DNA of 59,157 nt, filler included, from Sphacelaria rigidula (Eukaryota), in assembly GCA_964200075.2 (NCBI GenBank). It is 5 parts of 5 records of this genome, joined end to end, with 100 filler letters (N's around TTAATTAATTAA, not from the genome) between each part and the next. Parts side by side here need not be neighbours in the genome. Positions count along the whole stretch, not along the records: positions 1 to 11,753 come from CAXNAA020004550.1; 4 more parts are not named here. The stretch is one strand, 5' to 3'. Position 1 is the first letter of the stretch, and each line of letters starts with the position of its first letter. Position numbers and translations under genes: made by a program. A model generated the notes under the pieces. That model was not told where the DNA came from. It ran no database searches and worked only from the letters and a program-made list of their open reading frames with translations. This document shows, piece after piece, positions 2,658 to 58,844 of this stretch.

Positions 2658-2831
2658 TTCACCACAGTACGCCTATTTTGCTCTACTCGCAACCTCACGA
2701 CCACCTCCGTCTCAAGAGAATGAAGTACCCCACGTCAGTCGCTCCTTGTTTTAAAAGTGCCAATGGTCCACGCTAGCACACGCCTATATACCCCGCGTCG
2801 GACCCGAGAGCCAAACTCATAATGGGTAGCA

Positions 2832-4923
2832 TTATTCATCACCTATCGGACGTCCAACAGGAGGAAGACTCGACACTCTCGGCTCCAACTTCACGTTCGA
2901 TTTCACCTCTGCCCCTTCAGCCTGCATATTATCAAACGCGCCAAGACACCCGGACACCACTGCCGACGAATCGTATAACCATCCCGCATCCACACCACTA
3001 CTGCTACTACTAGAGCTACTACTAACACCTACGCCGCTCGAACCACTTGAACATGTAGCCTGTTCCCTATGATCACTTACCCAAGTGCCACAGTGCGCTG
3101 AAAAATGGGCTGCTGGCTCTACCTTTATTCCTGCCCCTGTCCTTGCCTCCGGAGATACCTGAGCACCAGCTCTCGAGGGTACCTGTGCCGAGGGCAACGG
3201 TAGCGTTGTACCACCCCGTCTGGGACGTTGACACACACAACGGCGAGTGCCAACAACGGCACATGAACCAGAAGCCGAGCACCCGGCACGTGTGCATCCT
3301 ATTCCACGTACGTCAGCAACAAAGCTTCCGCCAACGTCCGTCGGGCGACGGCTGGTGGGGTCCACCATAGTGATGAGTTTCGCGGAGTCGTGCACTGTAC
3401 CTGCGTTGTGTGTAGTATTATGCTGTCGGCAACACTGTGCCTCATCAGGGTTGTGTCCCTTGGAGGTACATGGCTCGGAGTTTCCCTTCTTGCCAGAATT
3501 GACATGCTTTGTGCCACCAATTCCCGCCTCGGCATGCTCGGAGAAGAGCTTCGCCTTCTTGTTCCTCGTCTCACCATACGATGGGTGTTTGAGGCCGGCC
3601 TCGTGATAGCACCTTCTCTTCACATTCACCATTCCCGCCCTGGCGTGCTCAAAGCAGAACTCTCTCTTCTTGCTTCCCGGTACACCATACGACGGATACT
3701 TGAGGCAGCCCTCGTCGCTGCATTTCTTGTCCCCCACATGCACCATCCCCTCCCTGGCGTGCGCGGAGCAGAACACCGCCTTCTTGCTTCCTGCTACACC
3801 ATACGACGGATACTTGGGGCAACCCTCGTCGCCGCACCTCTTGCTCACCACATTTACCATTCTCGCCCTGGCGTGCTCGGAGCAGAACTCCGCCTTCTTG
3901 CTTCCTGCTACACCAAATGATGGACGCTTGAGGCAGCGCTCGTCGCCGCATCTCTTGCCCATCACATTTACCATTCCCGCCCTGGCGTGCTCGGAGCAGA
4001 ACACCGCCTTCTTGCTCCCTGCTACACCATACGATGAACGCTTGAGGCAACCCTCGCCGCCGCACCTCTTGCTCATCACATTCACCATTCCCGCCCTGGC
4101 GTGCTCGGAGCAGAACACCGCCTTTCGGCTTCCTGCTTCACCATACGATGGCGGCTTGAGGCAACCCTTGTCGCCGCACCTCTTGCTCATCACGTTCACC
4201 ATTCCCGCCCTGGCGTGCTCGGAGCAGAACACCGCATTTCGGCTTCCTGCTTCACCATACGATGAACGCTTGAGGCAACCCTCGTCGCCGCACCTCTTGC
4301 TCATCACGTTCACCATTCCCGCCCTGGCGTGCTCGGAGCAGAACACCGCCTTTCGGCTCCCTGCTACACCATACGATGGCTGCTTGAGGCAACCCTTGTT
4401 GCCACACCTCTTGCTCACCACATCCATCATTCCCGCCCTGGCGTGCGCGAAGCAGAACTCCGCCTCCTTGCTCCCTGCTACACCATACGATGGCTGCTTG
4501 AGGCAGCCCTTGTTGCCACACCTCTTGCTCACCACATCCACCATTCCCGCCCTGGCGTGCGCGGAGCAGTACTCCGCCTCCTTTCTCCCTGCTACACCAA
4601 ATGATGGACGCTTGAGGCAACCCTCGTCGCCGCATCTCTTGCCCGCCACAGGTACCATTCCCGCCCCGGCGTGCTCGGAGCAGAACACCGCCTCCTTGCT
4701 CCCTGCTTCACCATACGATGGACGCTTGAGGCAACCCTCGCCGCCGCACCTCTTACTCACCTCATTTACCATTCCCGCCCTGGCGTGCTCGGAGCAGAAC
4801 TCCGCTTCGTAGCCTATTGAACCGTGCGATAACCGGTTGGAACAGCCCTCGTTGATGCAATTTCTCTTCGTCACGTCGGCCGTCAGCTTCTTCTTCGCGT
4901 CCTCCTCCTTCGAGAACCGGAAC
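2832..4923 (-). CDS. EsV-1-7 repeat (Cys/His tandem repeat) protein, large terminal exon; upstream exon(s) not identified
   Basis: The 680-aa ORF 2832..4874 extends in frame (FRFSKEEDAKKKLTADV) to a CAG acceptor at 4926-4924, with a CTGAC branch-like site about 40 nt upstream. It has 11 complete and 1 degenerate 38-aa repeats of the type KRCGDEGCLKRPSYGVAGSKKAxFCSEHARAGMVNV, which match the EsV-1-7 repeat known from the phaeovirus EsV-1 and expanded in brown algae. A low-complexity Ser/Gly-rich C-terminal tail follows. Confidence 0.9.
3520..4868 (-). repeat. Coding tandem array of 114-bp units (about 12 units)
   Basis: Near-identical units such as ACCATTCCCGCCCTGGCGTGCTCGGAGCAGAAC recur every 114 bp on the + strand. 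Confidence 0.95.
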
Positions 4924-5574
4924 CTGCCGGTATCACGATCACCAAAGCGCCGGAAAGCTAATCGTCAGCTACACGTGGCAGCACGTGAAGTTCATTTGTA
5001 GAAACTATGAAATTGCATTTGTTGCGCATAAATCAGAAGAGCACGAGACATCAGCATCCACGAAGACGATGCTCGATATGCACTGACCCACACAAACCTA
5101 GTTTTGGACAAGGGTGTCCTCTACATCACCTTAGTATGCATCGGGACCAACATCAGGACCGAAATAGTACGTGAGTAATATTCCATTGCCAAATCGTGCT
5201 TGGCCGTGAAAAGGACACGTGGCAGAATGAGACATGCCAAATCATGTACCCGGGCTTGCACCATCCTGCCAACGCTCGGAGAGGTTGACTTCCACTTTCG
5301 AACTACCTGACAGCGTTGGTGGAAGTGTTTCTATGCGCACAGAAGACTAGTACACGTTCGGAAAAACCATCCTGAACTCGCAAGTACCTGACAAGATTTT
5401 CGAACTACGGATATGCTATGATTTTATTCTATTTGATAGTCAGAAATAAAAAAGGGGTACCCTGTTTTCTCAACAGCGCTTCACGTGATCATCAAAAGTC
5501 AGTTATTTTGGTACTCGTGTTCAACTTGATATATGCGCATGCGTAGAGAAGAACAAGTATCTGACTGGTCCCGA

Positions 5575-5823
5575 GATAGCCCCCCCCCAAACCGGCCAAA
5601 ACCGTGCACGGAGGCGATGATCATAAATGCCATTAGAGCTAGTTTCGTGCTGCACGACGCGACTCATTTGGGCGTTGTAGCTGATTTCGGACTACAACAC
5701 GCCTCTCATGTGTGCGAAATTGCTGGAAACGAGCCCAATGGTGAAATCGCAGCCGGTTTGTCGGACGGTCTCCGGTGCACTTTTTGTGGTAGGGCTACCT
5801 CGGCATTAGTCACTCGCCGAATT
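5575..5823 (+). repeat. Interspersed repeat; second copy at about 46438..46692 (minus)
   Basis: TTCGTGCTGCACGACGCGACTCATTTGGGCGTTGTAGCTGATTT matches the reverse complement of 46570-46620. The shadow ORFs of both copies share FVLHDATHLGV. Confidence 0.85.
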
Positions 5824-6367
5824 CCAACACACACACGAGCACATGGCACGTCCAGTAGTGTGTACTTGATTTTTCTGTCGTACGCATGCGCGTATCGGTG
5901 TCAATAAATATCAGCTGATACCTATCAGTTATCGTCGCAAACTACAGTTACAGTACTTTGCCGTTTTGGTTGCTACTTGACCTGCAAGTGGGTATTCATT
6001 ATTTGTGCAACCGGACGTATTGAAGGATTCGGGTACTGCTCGTATCGTGCCTGCACGACGCGCATGGTGTTTTACATGCTTCCTTTCGCCGGTTCAAAGT
6101 GTCCTGTCGGGGATGTGCCCAAAGTTAAGTGAGACGCGAGATAGGTGAGGGGCACAAAGATATGACGTACAGTGCATTTCAATTGTTTAGGATCTGTACA
6201 CCATAGATGTGTACGATAGGTGCGGATATCCTAGCCAGCACGAAAAAGACTATCGTCATTGTAGACATCGTTGCTACTAGACCCGTTCTGGAGAAAACAT
6301 GTTCTGGCCTCAAACATATCTCGAAAACGTTCACACCCCGGACAATACAGTATGTAAAATGTTGACA

Positions 6368-11753: not shown

Positions 11754-11853
11754 NNNNNNNNNNNNNNNNNNNNNNNNNNNNNNNNNNNNNNNNNNNNTTA
11801 ATTAATTAANNNNNNNNNNNNNNNNNNNNNNNNNNNNNNNNNNNNNNNNNNNN
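11754..11853. other. Artificial contig linker (N44-TTAATTAATTAA-N44)
   Basis: Read directly from the sequence; identical to the other three linkers. Confidence 0.99.
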
Positions 11854-23605: not shown

Positions 23606-23705
23606 NNNNNNNNNNNNNNNNNNNNNNNNNNNNNNNNNNNNNNNNNNNNTTAATTAATTAANNNNNNNNNNNNNNNNNNNNNNNNNNNNNNNNNNNNNNN
23701 NNNNN
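23606..23705. other. Artificial contig linker
   Basis: N44-TTAATTAATTAA-N44. Confidence 0.99.
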
Positions 23706-35457: not shown

Positions 35458-35557
35458 NNNNNNNNNNNNNNNNNNNNNNNNNNNNNNNNNNNNNNNNNNN
35501 NTTAATTAATTAANNNNNNNNNNNNNNNNNNNNNNNNNNNNNNNNNNNNNNNNNNNN
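35458..35557. other. Artificial contig linker
   Basis: N44-TTAATTAATTAA-N44. Confidence 0.99.
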
Positions 35558-41949: not shown

Positions 41950-44900
41950 GGAACTGCAATCATGGATGATGCCTCCGTTCACGACTAGAATAGTGCGACA
42001 GCTTACCACCAACTTGTAATGGACTCGCAATCTAAAGAACTGACGGCGTGTTGTACAAAATCAGGCTTGCGAATGACTGGAAACACCACGAGGTGCAGCC
42101 GGCGCCCCCGGGGCGTTTTAACGTGTGATGGTTTTGGTGAGTGATAGATTTTTCAAGTGTTACCCCGACGATGTGGTAATACACGGTAGCACACTTCCGA
42201 ACATGCCGAGCACTTGGCGTATTTCTTCGCTGTCTTCGAACCGCACAACTTGAAACTTGCTCCGTCCAAATCCCGCGTGGGAGCGACTAGCATCGAACTC
42301 CTGGGCCACTGCATCACTCCTGGTGGTCATAGTCGAAACCTCAACAAGGTTGCCGCACTTGAAGGTGTGTCCATGCCACGGGATACATCTCAACTGCGCT
42401 CCTTTCTCGGCGGTTCGAGCTACTACCGACAGTATTTGCCGAACCTAGCCCAAATCTTGAAACCTCTCACCTCTCTTCTAAAGAAAATAAGGGGTGAAAC
42501 TTGCGTTAACGTCGGGAATGGAGGAAACAGTACGTCAACTGCTTGACACTTTCGCGATCACCAATCTTGGTTTTGCCAGACTGGTCAGTCGCAGAAAATG
42601 GTTCATGTCCGCCCCGACTTTCACGGATTCCTCTAAATTTGTCACCTTGGAGAAGGAGCAACCAGATGCTAATATTCGCCCCATTGTATATTGGAGTCGA
42701 CCCACCCACCTAAACGAACAAAACTGGTCGGTCATGGAGCGAGAGGCCGGCGCGATTGTTTGGGGAGTGAGACGTCTCCGTCAGTACTTGTATGACAATC
42801 CGTTCGTGATTTATACAGATCATTGGTCTTTGGAAAACCTCGACAGTTCTGCCTTGGGACGTATTACGGATCCCACCGAAGACATTGTATATTTCATTGT
42901 CAGAAGCGGTCATAGCGGAATCTACACACTACTCTCATTGAACAACAACTCGGAAGTTGTCATCGATGGGCTGACGACGACAGCTCACGCTTCTGTACTA
43001 GGCAGTATGCCACCACAGTCCGTTGTGTTCAGTTTGGAGTGGAGCTAGTACAAACCCGAGCGGGTATGATCATTTCCGTGCAACTGGCCATAGCATGGTT
43101 TGTGCTGCAGATGTAGAACTGTCTTGTACTGACTTCGTCCTCCCGGTTCAAGTTCGAGATATCATCGCAAATAGAACCCGGGGACGGAGGGCCACCGATA
43201 CGGCCGCCACCCTGGCAGTCGTAGGCCCAACCTTCCCATCCCGGTGCGCGATACTTTCCTTGCACCCCCTCAACCACCGCGGCGCAAGGCCCCCGGAAAA
43301 TCGACTCCATTCACAGCACCCCTTCCTTCCATATCCGAAGCCTCGGCTTTGCGCCCCCTCCCCGGTGATGATGTCCCCACTGATGCCTTATCACCCGATG
43401 CGCTAGTTGACGTAGGAATCGCAGACAATGTTCCGCTTGAAAATACACTAACTGTTCCCCCCGCCCATGATCCAAATATCCCTGATTCGAGTCAACACCA
43501 CCGTCACACGCGCCCCTTCATTTTGGACAAACCATCGGATAGTGTGTTTGAGAACATTTGACCCTTTTCTCCCACGCCGATTGGGCCAGGCAACAAGAAG
43601 CTTAACCTGCTTGTAGAGCGGCTATCCATTATCTACCCAAAAACTGCCCATCATTTTTTCCGGCAACTGAATTCCTCTTGCCCGTTGGGAACCACAAAGC
43701 CCCCACACAGGATGAAGTTACTGAACTAACGCGAGAAGGTATGCTTGGTACGGATGATGATGTGTTGCTCTTTTAGTTCGCTGATCGACAGCGCCCCTTC
43801 GTGTTGGTAAATCTACCAATGAACATGCCTGTTTTGTTAGGTGACGATCCCACACGAATGTTTGTGCCGCTGCTTCTGCGTCCATGGGTTCTCCATGACT
43901 GCCATTCACAAGCATCGGCACATCTTGGAGTTGCTCGGACATCCCAGATGCTTGAGCGTTTTGATTGGTGGGTTTGTATGGATCAGTGTGTACATTGGTG
44001 TGAGGCGCAAACAACTTCGCGTCAAACGGTTCGATGGCGAATTATTTTCATGCCATTCCCCAACGGGCCTGGTGAAGTAGCCTCATGGGATTGTTTTTGT
44101 CCGTTACCTCTCTCTGATAGTGGTAGCAAGTACATTTTGTTGTTTACGGATCGGTTTAGTCGACTCGCGTTAATGCATGCTGTTTCGGAAACCAACTAGA
44201 GTGCTACAGGCACAGCCACGTCCTCGTGTACACGTACATTCCGCAATGGTGTGAACCAAAACGATTGTTGTCCCATAACGGCTTGCATTTCGCCGGTAAA
44301 CTTTCTGCCGCGATCAGGAACCTCCTGGGAGCCCGTCGTATTTTTACTGGCTCATAATATGCATGTCCAGGTTGTCACTGACGGTGTTCGAACGGAAACC
44401 TTACGGCGGCCATCAAAGTTTGGATCAGGATATCGTGGAGTACCATATTTTTGTTGGTAATCGTCTTTGTCTTGTGTATGAGGTGTTACGCGAGCAGAAC
44501 CGCATCAATGCCGTTTTCTTTTTGTTGCGGTAGATCGAGATCATCTCCGGCCCTCAACTGATCCGCGGCCGTGGTGGTAAGATGACGATTATGTATCTAA
44601 CACATTGGAAGGGTATCATGCGTGTTATATGGGAGCGTGAAGTTGACTTACGTCACTTTCTTTGGGAAAAAATGCTGTACTGGGTAGGAGACGCCGTCCA
44701 ACACCGCCCGTTGAATAAGAGATGAAGGTGAATGCGCAAGGGAGCTGCCGCTCGGGAACTGGCACGAGAGCACTCGGCGAGGTTTGTTGTAACAGGATAT
44801 AGCCTTCTTTCGCGTTCACAATACATGCAGTCTTCTCACGGACAACGTTTGCCGAAGGGGGCGTATTTTTGGTATAAGTCTTTGGGTTCACCGTGGTGGT

Positions 44901-47307: not shown

Positions 47308-47407
47308 NNNNNNNNNNNNNNNNNNNNNNNNNNNNNNNNNNNNNNNNNNNNTTAATTAATTAANNNNNNNNNNNNNNNNNNNNNNNNNNNNNNNNNNNNN
47401 NNNNNNN
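47308..47407. other. Artificial contig linker
   Basis: N44-TTAATTAATTAA-N44. Confidence 0.99.
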
Positions 47408-57737: not shown

Positions 57738-58844
57738 TTCTCTCAGGTGGCGAACGTCACATATCCGGGCATATATCAAAAGTTTCTTGACGGCGTGGAC
57801 GTGCTGAATTTCGATCTGAGCTGGATACTCTCGACCGGGTGTATCTTTGACGTGAACTTTCACGAACGCCTCATCGTGTCTACGATAGCCCCTATCGTGG
57901 GTTTGACCATCCTCGGAGCTACGTACCGCTTTGGGGGGCGGGAGAAAAGCCGCTGGTCGGATGCTGCACTGGGAAGGTTCCGTCGAAAACACCTATCCAT
58001 GGTGATTTTCCTGACGTTTTTGGTGTACTCGTCAGTGTCCTCCATCTTATTTCAGATGTTCTCCTGCGAGAGGCTAGATGACGAGAAGTTCTATCTTCGC
58101 GCAGACTACCGAATCGAGTGCGATTCTCCCAGGCATGTGTCACTACAGATCTACGCAGGGTTCATGATTGCCCTATACACGGCTGGCATTCCCACTCTTT
58201 ACGCCGCCCTCCTTTTTAGAAACCGTGGCGTGTTAACGGACGAGGTCAGTCGTGAAGCTGAAATAGGCGTAAAACCCATCACGAATTTGTGGTCGCCGTA
58301 CCAGCCGCAGCGCTTCTACTATGAGGTGATTGAATGCGGTCGTCGGATTGCACTGACGGGAATCGTGGTCTTTATATATCCGAACACATCGGCACAGGTA
58401 GCAGTCACACTCGTATTGACTGTGTTCTTCATTTTCGTGTCCGAGTCCATGGCACCATATGCGTCTAAGTGGGATACGTGGGTGAACCGCACAGGGCATG
58501 CGGTAGTATTTTTAAGCATGTATTTGGGTCTGTTGTTGAAGGTAGACGTGTCTAGCGAAAACGCCACTAGCCAAAGGCTGTTTGAGCTTGTTCTTGTATC
58601 GATCAATATTTTCATGGTCACGGTTGTCGTTATCGAAACCATCGTGGTTTCTTGTTCGTTGAGATATGAAGAGCAAGTGGGTCCCAAAAGGTTTACGAAT
58701 GGTCGAGGCGTCACGTCTTTTCTCGAGGAAACAGAAGGCCGCCCCCGACCTGCCAACGTCGACGATGCGGAAACAGGAGAAAACGTCCTGTCGCGAAGAT
58801 TCATGGGAATTACGACACCTCCAGCAGGACCTACACGCCGGTGA
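57738..58844 (+). CDS. Terminal exon of a multi-pass membrane protein (brown-algal adhesin / polymorphic-outer-membrane-protein-like family C-terminal TM domain)
   Basis: Long open frame after a TAG acceptor (FSQVANVTYP; alternative CAG acceptor at 57746). It has about seven hydrophobic segments and the family motifs FLVYSSVS..LFQMFSC, YLRADYRIEC and LW.PY....FYYEVIECGRR. Upstream exons were not found. Confidence 0.85.
   Translation, partial: FSQVANVTYPGIYQKFLDGVDVLNFDLSWILSTGCIFDVNFHERLIVSTIAPIVGLTILGATYRFGGREKSRWSDAALGRFRRKHLSMVIFLTFLVYSSVSSILFQMFSCERLDDEKFYLRADYRIECDSPRHVSLQIYAGFMIALYTAGIPTLYAALLFRNRGVLTDEVSREAEIGVKPITNLWSPYQPQRFYYEVIECGRRIALTGIVVFIYPNTSAQVAVTLVLTVFFIFVSESMAPYASKWDTWVNRTGHAVVFLSMYLGLLLKVDVSSENATSQRLFELVLVSINIFMVTVVVIETIVVSCSLRYEEQVGPKRFTNGRGVTSFLEETEGRPRPANVDDAETGENVLSRRFMGITTPPAGPTRR

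Follow-up and report, generated by a model that had tools for sequence, protein, structure and literature searches.

The window analysed here, a 59,157-nt stretch of DNA joined from five parts of five records of the Sphacelaria rigidula genome (GCA_964200075.2), contains a gene of the EsV-1-7 family, read on the minus strand and represented by one uninterrupted open frame with an array of tandem Cys/His repeats and a C-terminal tail (Table 1). The array shows a 114-nt tandem period at 3495-4874 (11.3 copies, 86% matches, Tandem Repeats Finder score 1654), which a regular expression resolves into 11 intact CX4CX15-16CX2H units with a 38-aa period (114 nt). Ten of these units have 16 residues between the second and third cysteines and R1 has 15. 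The initial annotation of this DNA counted about 12 such repeats; a twelfth unit is present but lacks two cysteines, the second being replaced by Gly and the third by Phe. The residue pairs listed there as following the motif C-L-K (from R1 to R12: RL, RP, RP, QP, QP, RS, PP, RS, RP, YP, YP and HP) proved exactly right, as did the codons CGT, CAG, CCG, TAT and CAC for the first residue of the pair, which is position 9 when counted from the first Cys; R1 adds CGG. The scaffold is indeed basic, with a pI of 9.4 and 80 Lys and Arg against 43 Asp and Glu in the array.

Table 1. Features of the EsV-1-7 gene in the window, with positions counted along the whole stretch.
Feature	Position	Strand	Remarks
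Stop-to-stop frame	2832-4964	minus	710 codons, uninterrupted; contains the entire array and the C-terminal tail
Possible splice acceptor	4923..4925	minus	AG at 4925-4924, exon start at ~4923; weak hint only
R1	4749..4859	minus	aa 6-42; CX4CX15CX2H; ~73% nt identity to the others; position 9 R (CGG)
R2	4635..4748	minus	position 9 R (CGT)
R3	4521..4634	minus	position 9 R (CGT)
R4	4407..4520	minus	position 9 Q (CAG)
R5	4293..4406	minus	position 9 Q (CAG); clearest mosaic
R6	4179..4292	minus	position 9 R (CGT); position 10 S
R7	4065..4178	minus	position 9 P (CCG)
R8	3951..4064	minus	position 9 R (CGT); position 10 S
R9	3837..3950	minus	position 9 R (CGT)
R10	3723..3836	minus	position 9 Y (TAT)
R11	3612..3722	minus	37 aa, one linker codon missing; position 9 Y (TAT); model of low confidence from aa 390 on
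R12	3498..3611	minus	decayed; ~61% nt identity; position 9 H (CAC)
C-terminal tail	2835..3494	minus	220 aa, Cys/Ser-rich; 69% identical to the P0002 tail

All repeats lie in this one open frame, which agrees with the single exon that had been proposed for the array. The frame contains no ATG ahead of the repeats, however, so that at least one 5' exon must exist. No further exon was detected when homologous proteins were compared with the window by tblastn (0 of 684 high-scoring segment pairs outside 2700-5000), and no other EsV-1-7 units were found elsewhere in the 59 kb. A splice acceptor may lie near 4923, as is weakly suggested by contigs of four sequencing runs; three of the runs, X6 and X8 included, derive from one study and are only guessed to be RNA. 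The contigs of X6 (926 nt) and X8 (511 nt) cover 4789-4924 by just 136 nt, whereas a contig of the DNA-like run X1 continues over 4789-5209, past the candidate acceptor. The tail has no Pfam match along its 220 residues. We consider it to be coding sequence because it shares 145 of 210 residues with the tail of the S. rigidula protein P0002.

By its sequence, the gene is an ordinary member of the known and very large EsV-1-7 family, with nothing new about it as a family member. It matches Pfam PF19114 (EsV_1_7_cys) in 11 stretches, with E=1.8e-161 and 524.1 bits against a gathering cut-off of 25. With this family, which includes IMMEDIATE UPRIGHT (IMM) and the phaeovirus gene EsV-1-7, it shares the CX4CX16CX2H spacing, the 38-aa period and the brown-algal homologues. 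It differs from the family in its own 220-aa tail, common to it and P0002, and from IMM in having twelve repeats where IMM is said to have five; no IMM sequence was identified among our hits. Of 8000 candidates scored in a large protein collection, 279 were homologues at E<=0.001. S. rigidula proteins ranked first, with 64-66% identity, followed by named proteins of Ectocarpus, Pylaiella, Scytosiphon and Ascophyllum and by many unnamed metagenome proteins. Among the homologues X16 is the commonest spacing (623 matches), 395 of 499 consecutive canonical repeat pairs counted keep the 38-aa period, and intact repeats show no variation at the four presumed zinc ligands. Positive charge is likewise a family feature (mean net charge of +2.46 per repeat, 85% of 988 repeats positive). 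Furthermore, a locus search started from the protein P0091 revealed 12 giant-virus contigs with EsV-1-7 arrays (IMG/VR L001-L012), and the one started from the window protein (P0001) gave no viral relative. The viral arrays have the same motif and period, but the repeats within each array are ancient and far apart from one another (mean difference 0.59), stand in a viral genome context and follow a consensus with N at position 13 and K at position 27.

The published record on the family describes a huge expansion in brown algae, with 2018 proteins, and the largest orthogroup there. One account argues for a viral affinity of this orthogroup and reports rapid turnover and an often narrow, peripheral expression (10.64898/2026.04.27.720984). 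The window gene may already stand among the EsV-1-7 genes of Table S17 of 10.1101/2024.02.19.579948. Neither a position-specific diversification of the repeats nor a statement on their ligand was found in the searchable papers, a scope outside which lie the founding paper (Macaisne 2017) and the supplements.

Residues 225-669 of P0001 align with residues 1-443 of P0002, so that P0002 lacks a counterpart to the earlier repeats of the window protein. Close members of the family thus seem to vary in their number of repeats. Five repeats of the two proteins could be matched, and each of them has a different residue at position 9. Four longer homologues carry extra domains (UCH/DUSP/MYND, EF-hand or RT), and such fusions are not informative. 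Additional Pfam names in the homologues (Zf_WRKY19, Phe_ZIP, TnpV, zf-MIZ and others) were rejected as weak overlaps within the repeats, with 0 stretches passing alone. In P0023, P0051 and others, the 24-position Zf_WRKY19 model (PF24906) covers the opening 12-13 residues of EsV-1-7 units; the E-value is ~1e-8 when each protein is taken as a whole, and no individual stretch passes. This match may reflect a distant link of the algal and viral repeats to a plant zinc-finger motif, or merely a shared CxxxGC knuckle.

The initial annotation described the repeats as nearly identical at the DNA level and differing at one hypervariable position of a homogenised scaffold. Both statements went too far. 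Nucleotide identity is 76-95% among R2-R11, ~73% for R1 and ~61% for R12, and 27 of the 38 codons vary in their amino acid. Position 9 does have the highest pN (0.534), yet it tops a small set, being followed by codons 35 and 36 (0.398 each), 33 (0.316), 18 (0.296) and 3 (0.281). Overall dN/dS among R2-R11 is 0.58. Codons {9,11,35,36}, a set chosen from other proteins with the window left out, have in the window array a pS of 0.237, a pN of 0.342 and a dN/dS of 1.61, as opposed to 0.48 for the other 34 codons. The pN of this set was reached by 25/20000 random four-codon sets, and by 106/20000 when the codons were drawn from the 27 variable ones. The notion that neighbouring repeats are recombinant mosaics holds qualitatively: 116 of 300 informative-site pairs fail the four-gamete test, most repeats have one best partner over their initial 45 nt and another over the remaining 69 nt, and R5 agrees with R4 at 44/45 nt in the first part and then with R6/R7 at 67/69. 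Nevertheless, a permutation test on the repeats modelled on the pairwise homoplasy index was not significant (p=0.095).

Sequencing contigs yielded two further observations on the array. When contigs that are 95% alike or more are summed, their depth over 3711-3911 (R9-R10) is hundreds of times that of the flanks in all four runs; S. rigidula probably has many very similar repeat units elsewhere, and the depth at 3711-3911 is not a copy number. Moreover, each of the four runs shows a 66-nt skip from 3815 to 3882, which resembles a variant copy of a repeat.

The same positions stand out across the family: in ~120 homologues from brown algae, metagenomes and giant viruses, repeats that duplicated recently diverge first at 9, 36, 35 and 11. 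With a repeat hidden Markov model built from 632 canonical units, 1297 repeats were segmented in 182 proteins, and the mean within-protein pairwise difference was highest at positions 9 (0.80), 35 (0.77) and 36 (0.75); the regular-expression version gave 0.79, 0.79 and 0.78, respectively. In the giant-virus arrays, too divergent for within-array dS and hence used at the protein level only, positions 9, 35 and 36 again differ most between repeats (0.92, 0.89 and 0.86). Young repeat pairs, defined as those at least 70% identical (414 pairs from 63 proteins, window excluded), differ at 36 and 9 in 63% of cases each, at 35 in 54% and at 11 in 50%; the next position follows with 38% and the mean is 21.8%. 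The leading positions are the same in four subsets, namely Sphacelaria (12 proteins), other named brown algae (11), unnamed proteins (46) and giant-virus loci (11), and {9,11,35,36} exceed the remaining non-ligand positions in 60 of the 63 proteins. By plain entropy of the pool, position 9 ranks only sixth.

The residues at these positions are also peculiar. Position 9 is mostly R (262), Q (218), I (85) or H (67) among 968 repeats, and R/K/H/Q/N make up 62%. Acidic residues are scarce at 9 (12/968), 11 (2/970) and 35 (19/886) and rare at 36 (59/836), and they are frequent at other variable positions, such as 2 (160/860), 4 (396/888) and 29 (397/958). This depletion may instead be due to electrostatic constraints near the zinc site.

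Sites that distinguish neighbouring repeats could simply be exposed and weakly constrained, the modules having no individual specificity and their differences arising as a by-product of unequal crossing-over and gene conversion. Such an origin would fit the 27 variable codons and the overall dN/dS below 1, the signs of recombination between repeats and the decay of the last one, but a dN/dS above 1 for the set in the window array speaks against it. It would also fit the quick turnover and often narrow or peripheral expression described for the family in 10.64898/2026.04.27.720984, and the free change of position 9 among Sphacelaria paralogues and within certain groups of relatives. Neutral sites should, however, be the fastest among close relatives. 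In 16 groups comprising 118 repeats (10 clusters at 90% identity, 2 viral-locus groups and 4 close pairs), we found variation at position 9 in 18/118, at 35 in 15/109, at 36 in 18/101 and at 11 in 21/118, whereas position 7 varied in 33/118, 2 in 25/107 and 29 in 26/117, and position 15 was also faster than 9, 35 and 36. In addition, neutral exposed sites should take Asp and Glu as positions 2, 4, 25 and 29 do, in contrast to 9 and 11, and should hardly lead in four independent subsets and in nearly all proteins with young pairs. We regard the by-product explanation as unlikely. Taken together, the results indicate a limited group of sites at which the repeats remain distinct for reasons beyond a mere lack of constraint, as specificity positions of zinc-finger arrays do.

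To place these positions on a structure, we predicted residues 1-460 with AlphaFold2 from 111 homologues, which gave a mean predicted local distance difference test (pLDDT) score of 78.1 and a predicted template modelling score of 0.51. Most 10-residue blocks of aa 101-380 (approximately R3-R10) reach 84-95, aa 51-100 (R2-R3) reach 61-79 and aa 390-460 stay below 50; a two-repeat fragment was modelled with a pLDDT of 80.9. With fair confidence, both models predict the same order in each unit: a knuckle from C1 to C6, a hairpin of two beta-strands (12-14 and 20-22), a helix of a single turn (24-26) carrying C23/H26, and a third strand (31-33). The strongest couplings in mean-field direct coupling analysis (mfDCA) are those among the four presumed zinc ligands. 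A single zinc ion is probably held in each module by C1, C6, C23 and H26. Lone bridge marks assigned by DSSP are always paired in both models, joining the residue before C1 with position 9. Because of these paired marks, the linker of the preceding unit would run beside positions 7-11 and bring together its own 35 and 36 (35' and 36') with 9 and 11 of the following unit, and we infer from the models that the four could form one patch across the module junction. Position 9 has its best coupling partners in 36 and 35 of the preceding repeat, though the couplings are weak (mutual information ranks 32 and 39 of 1128; mfDCA ranks 44 and 49 of 938).

Transcription activator-like effector (TALE) repeats of Xanthomonas are 34 aa long, helical and metal-free, with one adjacent di-residue that varies in an almost invariant scaffold. 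The initial annotation imagined a comparable cipher, in which the single residue after C-L-K would read one base and the array would serve antiviral or anti-transposon surveillance. Both are indeed arrays of tandem units that are nearly equal in length (34 and 38 aa) and differ mainly at particular sites, position 9 ranks first in the window array and family-wide, and R, Q, I and H prevail there. The giant-virus affinity, evident from the 12 contigs with arrays and argued in 10.64898/2026.04.27.720984, can likewise be cited for it. On the other hand, 35 and 36 tell repeats apart as well as 9 does, and 11 almost as well; position 9 accepts a wide range of residues; and the scaffold is 76-95% identical where a TALE-like scaffold would be close to 100%. 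A TALE-type lone hypervariable site was rejected, since four sites in two clusters stand out. TALE-type helical metal-free repeats were rejected too, the models showing strands and one-turn helices around Cys/His ligands, that is, predicted zinc/beta modules. Moreover, neither the window, with one EsV-1-7 gene in 59 kb, nor the papers searched link the window gene to defence. We hence consider the single-residue cipher very improbable. What stands of the idea of a repeat-coded reader is the localised variation at sites rich in R, Q, H and K and poor in D and E; the one-position code does not.

A closer parallel may be found in C2H2 zinc-finger arrays. In KRAB-ZNF proteins and PRDM9, fingers are homogenised by recombination, and diversity is confined to few positions, with dN/dS >1 between fingers and conservation between orthologues. 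By analogy, the variation pattern of the window array resembles C2H2 specificity positions more than a one-residue TALE code. Both kinds of array consist of tandem zinc modules (here predicted) with a fixed period, a conserved linker and diversity at few positions. Their mode of working would also be similar, with few positions diversified between repeats and kept among relatives, the result for relatives being uneven here. They differ in ligand spacing, and the candidate specificity sites of the EsV-1-7 repeats flank the knuckle and lie in the linker. Membership of the C2H2 class itself (CX2-4CX12HX3-5H, beta-beta-alpha) was rejected on account of the different spacing, the lack of a zf-C2H2 Pfam match and the lack of a long helix.

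In the order of its elements, the predicted module resembles treble-clef fingers (RING, B-box, GATA), with a knuckle with two ligands, a beta-hairpin and two ligands at the start of a helix, and weak, non-significant matches to RING and B-box chains were obtained (Z <=3.0). It differs from them in its one-turn helix and in a single zinc per module in place of the cross-brace. These likenesses bear on another explanation, in which the array is a protein-protein scaffold of zinc modules similar to LIM, RING, B-box or PHD, each module binding a different protein partner through its variable patch. The sole structural matches are to such protein-binding modules: RING domains in VIA at Z 2.0-3.0, the best being 2yhn_A (Z 3.0, root-mean-square deviation 3.2, 44 aligned residues), a RING domain of the kind that binds proteins, and PHD, LIM and B-box rows in Foldseek at E ~1-8. 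All of them, however, fall below a trustworthy level, models without a true match typically reaching a best Z of 7-8 in VIA, and a sequence search of the PDB gave 0 hits at E<=1. Localised variation would suit any ligand. IMM, presented as a developmental regulator 'of unknown function' (PMC7457493), can also be cited for this explanation. Yet the fixed period, the 85% of basic repeats and the acid-poor variable sites suit a periodic polyanion better. The N-terminus of a transposase is, in addition, the usual location of its DNA-binding domains. An Ectocarpus Tc1/mariner transposase carries an EsV-1-7 domain at the N-terminus, and its authors suggest an uncharacterised class of zinc fingers (PMC12477816); from outside our data, this is the sole hint of DNA binding. 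In our judgement a protein scaffold is unlikely.

We tentatively prefer to read the window gene as the large 3' exon of a nuclear brown-algal EsV-1-7 gene that encodes a modular zinc recognition array, likely with a nucleic-acid ligand, and we place this reading somewhat short of probable. The scaffold would be kept alike by duplication and gene conversion, and a small patch beside the knuckle would individualise the modules, formed by 9 and 11, which follow the second Cys, together with 35 and 36 in the linker that leads into the next module. This patch would then set the specificity of each module. The ligand would most likely be a polyanionic polymer, DNA or RNA; nucleic acid is favoured because of the fixed 38-aa period, the 85% of positive repeats, the nearly acid-free variable sites and the N-terminal domain of the transposase.

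A number of results weigh against this recognition array. Position 11 is invariant in the window array, where the variability of positions 3, 19 and 33 is close to that of 36, and the dN/dS of the set comes from 10 short recombining repeats, in which gene conversion violates the model. Among the 16 groups of relatives, three show frequent change of position 9 (4/7 repeats in c1, 3/6 in c4 and 5/8 in p4); a pairwise tally found it changed in 16/33 matched repeats, 9/10 in two Sphacelaria paralogue pairs included. The scarcity of acidic residues beside a Cys3His zinc site could be an effect of stability rather than of the ligand. As for the junction patch, it is drawn from DSSP marks and weak couplings, and position 9 is nearly as coupled with 35 and 36 of its own repeat (mfDCA ranks 52 and 58 of 938). 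The helix has one turn only, and a recognition helix in the style of C2H2 or GATA fingers is absent from the models. Structural comparison gave insignificant matches throughout, the best E in Foldseek against the PDB being 0.83 for the whole-array model and 1.0 for the two-repeat model, and a wide VIA search giving one row at Z 2.1 for the former and a best Z of 3.0 for the latter. Finally, no ligand binding by any EsV-1-7 protein is reported in the searchable literature.

EsV-1-7 proteins form the largest brown-algal orthogroup and include a developmental regulator. The useful part of our data is the site pattern, as the same three or four positions separate repeats in algae, metagenomes and giant viruses. 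It provides a concrete hypothesis on the residues that define recognition. If the recognition array proved true, the expansion of the family would be explained and a new designable recognition scaffold would be at hand. A bolder extension, which we consider unlikely, is that EsV-1-7 arrays constitute an additional class of modular readers of polymers that evolve fast, alongside C2H2 fingers, TALEs and PPR/PUF repeats, a four-residue junction patch (35 and 36 together with 9 and 11 of the next unit) reading short DNA or RNA, and the huge expansions in brown algae and giant viruses representing target diversification in regulation or in conflict between the host and viruses or transposons. An antiviral or anti-transposon role is pure conjecture.

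Just downstream of the stop of the gene, at 2360-2659, lies an element that resembles a miniature inverted-repeat transposable element, with 31-nt inverted arms (2360-2390/2629-2659) that are 84% complementary and 238 nt apart. All four runs show an extremely high summed contig depth at 2505-2705, and 2659 is the starting point of many joints with short sides. A deletion of the gene, which joints of X1 at 2659 might indicate, was rejected, as their sides measure only 20-23 nt and a high-copy element is the most likely cause. Upstream of the exon, 5520-5921 is probably another high-copy repeat, with a summed contig depth of 130,899 and 36,499 in X1. Paired runs of 44 N, 12 bases apart, recur every ~11,850 bases at 11754-11853, 23606-23705, 35458-35557 and 47308-47407 and look like joins or masking, not biology. 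On the plus strand, an open frame at 42491-43048 encodes a reverse-transcriptase RNase H-like domain (PF17917, E=4.9e-18) and marks a retrotransposon remnant. A 368-codon frame at 57738-58844, also on the plus strand, matches a TRP ion-channel family below the cut-off (PF06011, 25.6 against 28.5 bits) and may, from this sequence match, be an exon of a membrane protein gene.

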